The translations under genes and the position numbers were made by a program. From Lytechinus pictus (taxonomy: Eukaryota), in the NCBI RefSeq assembly GCF_037042905.1, contig NC_087252.1, positions 1,054,001-1,118,000 of the forward strand: a stretch of 64,000 bases of DNA, given 5' to 3'. The notes beneath the pieces were generated by a model. It did no database searches and was not told the origin of the DNA. It saw only the letters and a list, made by a program, of their open reading frames with translations. Below are positions 47,461 through 48,464 of this stretch, piece after piece; the first letter of the stretch is position 1, and each line of letters starts with the position of its first letter.

Positions 47461-47500
47461 TTACTTCTTTCCACCGTATCTCCATCCGTAAGGAAAAACG
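47461..47500 (-). CDS. Prepropeptide gene A, last coding exon: (F)VFPYGWRYG-GKK-stop (amidation signal)
   Basis: Acceptor ttttacttctcag at 47501-47502; phase 2 completes TTC; ends G-K-K-TAA. The exon continues to donor gtgagt at 47434. Confidence 0.85.
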
Positions 47501-48282
47501 CTGAGAAGTAAAACAAATATTCAGATCTCAACATTTCATAATTGAAAGTTTCATAATACGCAGTGCAAATCTATGTGTTTTTTTTTACATTGTAAAAGCA
47601 CGATGAAACCATTTATCTTGGCATTAAAATATTAATTTTGACGGGCATAACGCCCCGAAACCTTTGGACATTTTTGTCACTCCCCCCTCCCCCATCCGAA
47701 AAAAAAAAAGTATCGACGCCCATATAGAGTGAATATTCAATATAACCACACATGGTTACATCATTAGACTTGAAATAGTATGAGATGAACAGAAAAAAAT
47801 AATATTTACCGTGGAAAACACATTTTAATCAAAATTTGATGAAAGTATAAACTTTCTTTTGCATTTTTATTTTTTCCATGATGAATATAGAATCACTTTC
47901 TTGTTCTTCTTCCTCACATGTTTTAATAAACATACATTGAATATTTCCAAATGCAATCTAATTAAACACAGTTATTTCTCTGCATGCCAACATGATTATG
48001 AAGAGTTTATGAGGTGACCAAAACATAATTATCGTTCGCATTGTTTCATTCGGCGAGATATTATCTTCATGGGTCACTGCAAACGGTCCTAAACAGGTCC
48101 TTTTCAATGTCTGTTTATTAAAAAGTTTAGCTCGTACTTTGCGCTCGATTCTTCGAGACAGGCAATGATCTATTGATGAACACCATAAATGAAATGAAAT
48201 TATAGGCCCTATGAAATTAAATAATGAAATAATGGAATACAGAAATCGAAATAAAAAAAATAAAAACCGACTTCTGACTTAC

Positions 48283-48464
48283 AATGGGCGTCCTTCCTTA
48301 CTCTTCCCTCTCTTTGACATATCCTCCATTCCGATGATGAGGTCGGGATCTCGCTTATACCCGTCATCATTCACCACCTCGACGTCGAATTCATCAGCAG
48401 CTGATGCCACCAGAATGAGAGCGATGGAAGCGAAGGCGAGGACGAGTAAGAGCTTGGATGCCAT
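48283..48464 (-). CDS. Secreted prepropeptide gene A, first coding exon (signal peptide, acidic pro-region, two KR sites)
   Basis: MASKLLLVLAFASIALILVASA-ADEFDVEVVNDDGY-KR-DPDLIIGMEDMS-KR-GKSKEGRP; acceptor at 48492-48493; phase-2 donor TT|gtaagt at 48282. Confidence 0.88.

Follow-up and report, generated by a model that had tools for sequence, protein, structure and literature searches.

Gene Structure and Transcripts

The window analyzed here is a 64-kb stretch of DNA from Lytechinus pictus (G000:C8:1054001-1118000, in a genome of 812 Mb labeled G000), and positions in it serve as coordinates unless a contig is named. Its minus strand carries a real, expressed and spliced gene of four exons that apparently lacks annotation, here termed gene A, with a cysteine-free amidated peptide as its predicted product, and, 9 kb upstream on the same strand, a tandem member of a family of four-cysteine precursors, here termed gene B. 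The existence of gene A had been proposed from sequence inspection, by joining one exon to a 40-nt coding exon to obtain a 73-aa precursor. The join of 48283-48464 to 47461-47500 on the minus strand yields exactly this protein, using a GTAAGT phase-2 donor and a polypyrimidine/CAG acceptor, and among the 21 pyrimidine-rich acceptors located ≤5 kb from the donor the acceptor at 47500 alone gives a frame ending in G-[KR]1-2-stop.

Four public runs were mapped on 45500-49880: X1 and X9 (organism A, two studies), X5 (organism B, a third study) and the raw reads of X11. X1 and X5 are taken to be RNA by guess and X9 carries no recorded kind; the presence of spliced RNA is shown by three GT..AG joins. 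The joint between 47500 and 48283, spanning a 782-nt GT..AG intron, is present in X1 and X9 contigs, and two X5 contigs stop at 47500 and then continue in letters that read as exon 2, the predicted junction being spliced in transcript contigs from three studies under two organism labels. A single 462-nt X1 contig covers exons 1 to 4, and the transcript contigs define introns at 48492-49324, 47501-48282 and 46824-47434, all of them GT..AG. An X9 contig of low depth (2.8) covers unspliced intron.

A putative TATA box (TATAAAA, 49403..49409) lies upstream of the contigs, about 40 nt from their 5' end. Exon 1 (49325..49369) is 5' untranslated region (UTR), its 5' end being the contig end and not a mapped start, and it is joined to exon 2 at 48491/49325 across an 833-nt GT..AG intron in X9 and X1. 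Exon 2 (48283..48491, ATG at 48464), defined by sequence and transcript contigs, runs from the signal peptide to the cationic head of the predicted mature peptide and closes with the phase-2 donor. Intron 2 (47501..48282) thus interrupts the mature peptide, with its joint in X9 and X1 and loose ends in X5. The 40 nt originally assigned to exon 3 stand as the length of its coding part; the full exon (47435..47500) measures 66 nt in the contigs and contains an aromatic cysteine-free tail up to 47473, the amide-donor Gly (47470-47472), KK, the stop codon (47461-47463) and 26 nt of 3' UTR. By DNA search, it is a single-copy sequence in the genome. Exon 4 (45264..46823), joined at 46823/47435 across a 611-nt GT..AG intron, provides the rest of the 3' UTR; contigs extend past 45500, and the transcript would end near 45270, with poly(A)-signal hexamers at 45276 and 45264 on the minus strand. 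No full-length protein record of gene A was found among 5.8 billion sequences, at searched lengths of about 31-105 aa. A short repeat that is dispersed and includes a tRNA-like stretch occurs in intron 3 (46941-47216), where it is the source of most of the mapped reads, and again at 7878-8349, 33674-33780 and 50353-50468.

Organization of the Predicted Precursor

The gene A precursor reads as a signal peptide, an acidic pro-piece, KR, an acidic spacer, KR, 18 residues, G-K-K and a stop. The predicted signal peptide (residues 1-22 or 1-23, 48396..48464) has a hydrophobic core and small residues at -3/-1, and is followed by the acidic pro-piece (residues 24-36, net -6, 48357..48395) and KR at 48351-48356. 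The acidic spacer (residues 39-50, net -4, 48315..48350) starts with D-P, as in most family members, and precedes KR at 48309-48314. The cationic head of the predicted mature peptide (residues 53-60 and two bases of Phe61, 48283..48308) closes the coding part of exon 2. The anatomy put forward in the original prediction, including an amidated 18-mer, is therefore supported, with cleavage and amidation as predictions from the rules of prohormone convertase, carboxypeptidase E and PAM processing. The computed 18-mer amide has a net charge of +4, five aromatic residues, a monoisotopic mass of 2129.1 Da and a weak helical moment of 0.34. Internal R-P and R-Y are poor monobasic cleavage sites. The head varies among orthologues, and likewise from paralogue to paralogue, with an E to G change in organism B (X5) and SKE absent in the protein P0001, and the 66 nt of exon 3 differ from organism B by one letter in one contig and by five in another.

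A Family of Four-Cysteine Precursors

Gene B (53231..61206, minus strand) comprises exons at 61157-61206, 57675-57900 (ATG at 57894), 54872-54949 and 53231-53777, with a TATA at 61261, and all four exons are spliced together in one 901-nt X1 contig; among the four mapped runs its contigs were seen in X1 alone, and contigs cannot show absence. Its precursor contains a signal, an acidic pro-piece, a single KR and a cationic peptide with the pattern C-x9-C-x-C-x10-C, ending in G-K-stop and with an extra RR in its head. The protein is that of RefSeq LOC129266860 (P0018), listed as uncharacterized, with an L. variegatus counterpart (P0016). Its cysteine exon is the only one in the window, and no alternative cysteine exon was found within the window downstream of gene A.

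A search with exon 2, followed by a search with its matches, located 33 further prepro loci on seven contigs of the genome, making 35 with genes A and B. An additional C-x7-C-x-C-x12-C exon on the minus strand near C8 27.3628 Mb (L061) has its prepro exon outside the matches, and the count is therefore a lower bound, in which some C8 copies may be duplicated haplotypes. Family members read in the order signal, acidic stretch, usually KR-D-P with a spacer, KR-G, basic head and phase-1 donor. Twenty-eight loci (gene B and 27 others) have a C-x5..9-C-x-C-x9..15-C exon, and the seven for which none was found are gene A, L024, L047 and, examined to a flank of 1.5 kb, L023, L034, L036 and L039. L024 (C4 12.302 Mb) looks damaged: its pro-piece is short and devoid of KR, and a cysteine exon is absent from the about 10 kb examined. 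L047 (C11 27.546 Mb), which has no start codon, looks damaged too. The third exons of the family are mostly predicted, and several of them match protein records (P0003, P0012, P0014, P0015, P0018, P0020 and P0021).

Profile searches returned 18 and 32 relatives, and all those with names are uncharacterized proteins of Lytechinus, Strongylocentrotus and Diadema, with representatives in L. variegatus, S. purpuratus and two Diadema species; examples are LOC129266860, LOC121406065, LOC115921771, LOC105437515 and Diadema XP_072166414.1. Subfamilies are retained across genera, as illustrated by P0020 and Diadema P0002, whose mature parts are 64% identical. Four unnamed records (P0038, P0039, P0040 and P0041) are related through the prepro at a greater distance, carry heads of S-Y-P-S-K or another kind and may come from other echinoderm classes, and a query with P0038 gave no match in the genome. 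Nine proteins matched no Pfam family below E 0.1, and a PDB sequence search gave no significant match. The predicted folds have a pLDDT of 61 for the full precursor and of 70 for the mature four-cysteine model, which shows three short strands; fold comparison matched nothing in Foldseek (E 0.001) or, among 48,161 chains, in VIA (Z 2), and the spider-toxin clusters retrieved from the ESM Atlas with P0010 (0.75-0.79) are at chance level.

The characterized peptide that the family matches is PpCrAMP, a peptide of the sea star Patiria pectinifera (GenBank MF443207), which is described as the only known sea-star antimicrobial peptide (AMP) and has a predicted beta-hairpin (PMC11767717). The urchin paralogues agree with it in precursor layout and carry its four-cysteine core: by motif and spacing, and with a motif chosen after the PpCrAMP sequence had been seen, FFxC-x8-CVCD[KR]R matches two of 55 stored proteins (P0010 and P0012), and the looser F-x-x-C-x8-C-x-C-D-[KR] matches eight of the 55, including P0030.

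The family forms tandem four-cysteine arrays (L021 and L025-L048), located at 5.38-5.70 and 6.15-6.20 Mb of C8, 27.52-27.65 Mb of C11 and 16.37-16.39 Mb of C21, with nine near-identical prepro copies in those of C8. Three family genes (L012/L013, L015/L016 and L022/L023) are each present in two copies on C8, in mirror order, at 27.17-27.36 and 39.37-39.58 Mb with about 90-95% intron identity, an arrangement that is either an inverted duplication of large size or a haplotype that the assembly left uncollapsed. Divergence was compared in the 25 of 210 paralogue pairs, not independent of each other, in which the prepro proportion of silent differences (pS) is below 0.5. Mature identity is lower than prepro identity in 19 of these close pairs, equal in one and higher in five, and mature pS exceeds prepro pS in all 25. 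Because the mature part exceeds the prepro part at silent sites too, the pattern suggests that, in the array genes, exon 2 has undergone gene conversion or exon 3 mutates at a raised rate.

Relationship of Gene A to the Family

The original prediction had recognized no family for gene A. Its prepro exon, however, belongs to this family of at least 35 loci, and gene A is hence no orphan; the RefSeq relatives are all uncharacterized. On a profile of 20 prepro exons, from which genes A and B were excluded, gene A scores 24.9 bits, the best of 1239 window frames, a value reached by none of 2000 shuffles that keep the signal and by 63 of 2000 segment shuffles that keep KR. A second line of evidence goes through P0037, an unnamed protein 46% identical to gene A, whose best genome match is gene A (E 2e-10) and whose other six matches are family members; its prepro profile score is 34.3 bits, and one of 2000 strict shuffles scores as high. 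Lastly, in a prepro tree of 45 rows and 65 columns, gene A clusters with P0001 and P0037 (98/80), and this clade is joined to L005, P0026 and Diadema P0030 (99/99), L005 and P0030 being four-cysteine members. By both BLAST and tree, the echinoid subfamily nearest to gene A is that of L005, L006, P0030 and P0026. L050, the sole metagenome match for the orthologue loci, was discarded, as it lies on a contig of 59% GC and matches in no signal-peptide frame.

Gene layout is also shared. Genes A and B both have a 5'-UTR exon, an intron 7-12 codons past the last KR and a short symmetric exon 3, and the echinoid four-cysteine precursors resemble gene A in their KR-D-P spacer, KR-G, intron just past the cationic head and short third exon. 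The 66 nt of gene A exon 3 compare with 63-78 nt for many of the family cysteine exons, others being longer. One difference lies in the mature peptide: all 25 full-length stored proteins that match the pattern have four cysteines, and gene A has none. An in-frame TGC two codons before the gene A exon-3 donor, at the position of the fourth cysteine of family members, is a post hoc hint of a possible cysteine remnant. The idea that exon 3 is a frameshifted cysteine exon was rejected, since no cysteine pattern appears in its remaining frames and the DNA and protein tests are non-significant. Gene A is accordingly read as a probable combination of a homologous prepro exon with a third exon that has been replaced or has fully diverged.

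A Probable Host-Defense Peptide and Its Alternatives

Whether the peptide was a neuropeptide or a host-defense or venom component had been left open. The evidence now favors host defense, because the gene A prepro ties to a large four-cysteine family matching PpCrAMP. As read from the sequence, the product of gene A is, with reasonable probability, a linear, cationic, aromatic, amidated host-defense peptide that targets membranes and derives from a PpCrAMP-like four-cysteine gene whose cysteine exon was lost or replaced. Following the established pathway, prohormone convertase would cut at both KR sites, carboxypeptidase E would trim KK and PAM would turn Gly71 into the amide. The acidic pro-pieces (-6 and -4) would mask the cationic peptide (+4) in storage, and anionic pro-pieces are described as neutralizing cationic sea urchin AMPs (PMC10608444). 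Such pro-pieces and Gly-basic amidation, both features of sea urchin AMPs, count in favor of host defense. Once released, the G/K/R head may bind anionic microbial surfaces and the F-V-F-P-Y-G-W-R-Y tail may insert in the membrane, with an aromatic hairpin around P-Y-G possibly substituting for the lost disulfides; antibacterial activity and the direction of cysteine loss are likewise presumed in this scheme.

A neuropeptide or hormone acting on a G-protein-coupled receptor, possibly of GnRH/corazonin type and with or without descent of the gene from the PpCrAMP-like family, is the foremost alternative, to be regarded as unlikely. Starfish GnRH- and corazonin-type peptides share a C-terminal W-x-x-G-amide generated from G-G-dibasic and directly follow the signal peptide (PMC4772807). 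In gene A, W-R-Y-G followed by G-K-K would produce the same W-x-x-G-amide end, and the single-copy state of the gene and the combination of a conserved tail with a variable head, as in peptides with a receptor-binding C-terminus, agree with a receptor ligand. Its peptide, however, is C-terminal and does not directly follow the signal peptide, starts with Gly (leaving no pyroglutamate), has GWRY instead of GWxP and comes with no associated C-terminal domain, so that canonical GnRH or corazonin identity is rejected, in agreement with the original prediction for GnRH. The ophiuroid precursor supplements show no match (PMC5627052), and the tie of the prepro to a 35-locus PpCrAMP-like family also speaks against a neuropeptide. 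A luqin/RWamide identity was rejected for want of a KFMRW-amide end. A more specific and quite improbable version holds that a PpCrAMP-like immune gene exchanged its cysteine exon for an aromatic W-x-x-G-amide exon and recently gave birth to a receptor-acting signaling peptide, whether neuropeptide or immune hormone. Were the peptide a receptor ligand, gene A would connect immune effectors to the origins of neuropeptides, in a birth from a host-defense gene that can be traced.

It is also rather improbable that gene A, and perhaps the whole family, produces a venom or an epidermal deterrent secretion of globiferous pedicellariae, spines or tube feet. In venom superfamilies, tandem arrays join a prepro exon that is conserved to a mature exon that diverges faster, and the present family has a similar build. 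Lytechinus pedicellarial extracts are neuroactive, with components that are uncharacterized, but the toxins listed in the consulted part of the same review are lectins, phospholipases A2, a 10-kDa holoprotein and small molecules (PMC12193733). The presence of the family in Strongylocentrotus and Diadema, with subfamilies retained, and the fact that the closest characterized relative is an antibacterial peptide argue further against a venom. That gene A is a decaying four-cysteine paralogue, transcribed past a premature stop into no useful product, would fit the TGC described above and a stop that lies within exon 3 and has one more intron after it, but is very improbable in view of an exon 3 without significant likeness to cysteine exons, a complete G-K-K amidation signal exactly at the stop, a frame and splice kept in organism B, and the ends of P0001 and P0037, which appear to be those that read-through of the phase-2 donor predicts. 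Because of these ends, the cysteine-free form of gene A may be suspected of long persistence.

Several observations nevertheless weigh against a host-defense peptide derived from a four-cysteine gene. The function of the peptide is read from sequence, and none of the urchin paralogues is known as an antimicrobial; the peptide itself is short, with a charge of only +4, the weak helical moment given above and a single-copy gene behind it. The direct prepro link between gene A and the family is modest, because the KR-keeping segment shuffles reach its score in about 3% of this strict null. The tree is built on 65 columns and its supporting clade sits on a long branch, and the bridge through P0037 concerns the prepro part of that protein. 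Gene A exon 3 shows no significant likeness to the family cysteine exons, either at the DNA level (best z of 2.2 among 24, with the profile score reached by 784 of 1000 shuffles) or on a protein profile (score reached by 692 of 1000 shuffles). Furthermore, the gene A introns are in phase 2, whereas the coding introns of the family in this genome are in phase 1. The proportion of amino acid-changing differences in the mature part lies below pS in all 25 close pairs, hence giving no sign of positive selection, and the PpCrAMP motif was chosen post hoc. Finally, the X11 raw reads (8.7 million records, about 6% of the run) have zero depth on both coding exons, and expression of gene A is for this reason probably limited by tissue or stage.

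At least 35 PpCrAMP-like loci lie uncharacterized in a model sea urchin, and in one branch the exon for processing and the cationic head seem to have been retained and the disulfide module traded for a linear aromatic amide. If active, the 18-mer would be an easily synthesized probe of bacterial killing by the family, and gene A would provide a clear case of defense-peptide remodeling at the exon level.

Other Features of the Window

On the plus strand, a BarH-class homeobox gene (27589-41097), putatively Barx, lies tail to tail with gene A; its homeodomain is split over exons near 38600 and at 39590-39730, and a PTKPKGRPKK motif follows downstream. Farther away, 3010-17680 (plus strand) contains at least six C-type lectin-like exons, one of which was tested against Pfam Lectin_C, in two runs that are each closed by a PAN/Apple exon (9167-9517 and 17405-17680). 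This region probably represents two tandem lectin-PAN genes, possibly related to immunity.

Comparison with Known Peptide Systems

The 2018 abstract of Kim and colleagues reportedly locates PpCrAMP expression in the tube feet and the coelomic epithelium and notes that further echinoderms have orthologues. On account of these orthologues, the existence of the family is probably not new; its size here and its cysteine-free branch appear to be. A literature search found nothing relevant for GWRYG, the family motifs or the LOC identifiers, in a coverage that left out the S. purpuratus neuropeptide catalogue, one sea urchin peptidomics study and the primary description of PpCrAMP, any of which may list the gene or family. 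Searches of the supplements of PMC11574069 and PMC5627052 gave no relevant match, and two motifs are absent from that of PMC11767717. In a 2025 review, sea urchin AMPs comprise only strongylocins, centrocins and paracentrin, with PpCrAMP as the sole AMP of sea stars.

Centrocins consist of disulfide-linked heavy and light chains with an interchain, with Gly-basic amidation in EeCentrocins, and strongylocins have six cysteines (PMC4805251). Both resemble gene A in being secreted with an anionic pro-piece and a cationic mature part and in having a prepro that is conserved beside a mature region that varies, and Trp bromination is a modification that they and gene A could have in common. The faster mature region of the gene A family is also the pattern reported for centrocins. 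A centrocin identity was rejected because gene A has no Cys and a single mature segment, and a strongylocin identity because it has no six-cysteine mature peptide.

The closest comparison is with PpCrAMP, whose precursor has a 21-residue signal, an acidic pro-piece, KR, a G/R/K-rich head ending in G-x-P-F-F, the pattern C-x8-C-x-C-x10-C and a terminal Gly (PMC11767717, Table S2). Gene A shares with it the signal peptide, the acidic pro-piece, KR, a net charge of +3 to +4 and a G/K/R-rich head ending in G-x-P-F, in the form G-R-P-F-x-F as opposed to G-x-P-F-F, as well as a C-terminal Gly for predicted amidation. Unlike PpCrAMP, gene A has two KR sites with a spacer, a G-K-K end before the stop, a mature peptide of 18 instead of about 38 residues, an aromatic F/Y/W tail and no cysteine, and because it lacks the four cysteines it is not classified as PpCrAMP, although its peptide most likely acts in the same way. 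The gene A intron at 47501-48282 separates the cationic head from the C-terminal part, and in the 2018 abstract an intron reportedly divides the cationic head of PpCrAMP from its cysteine domain. With respect to activity, the values listed for PpCrAMPred, read here as the reduced form, and for PpCrAMP-2 are 42.3 and 22.9 μg/mL against B. subtilis, 8.4 and 4.5 μg/mL against S. enterica, and 24.2 and 12.2 μg/mL against S. flexneri (PMC11767717, Table S7). The disulfides of PpCrAMP hence appear to be dispensable, since the activity of PpCrAMPred lies within about two-fold of that of PpCrAMP-2.
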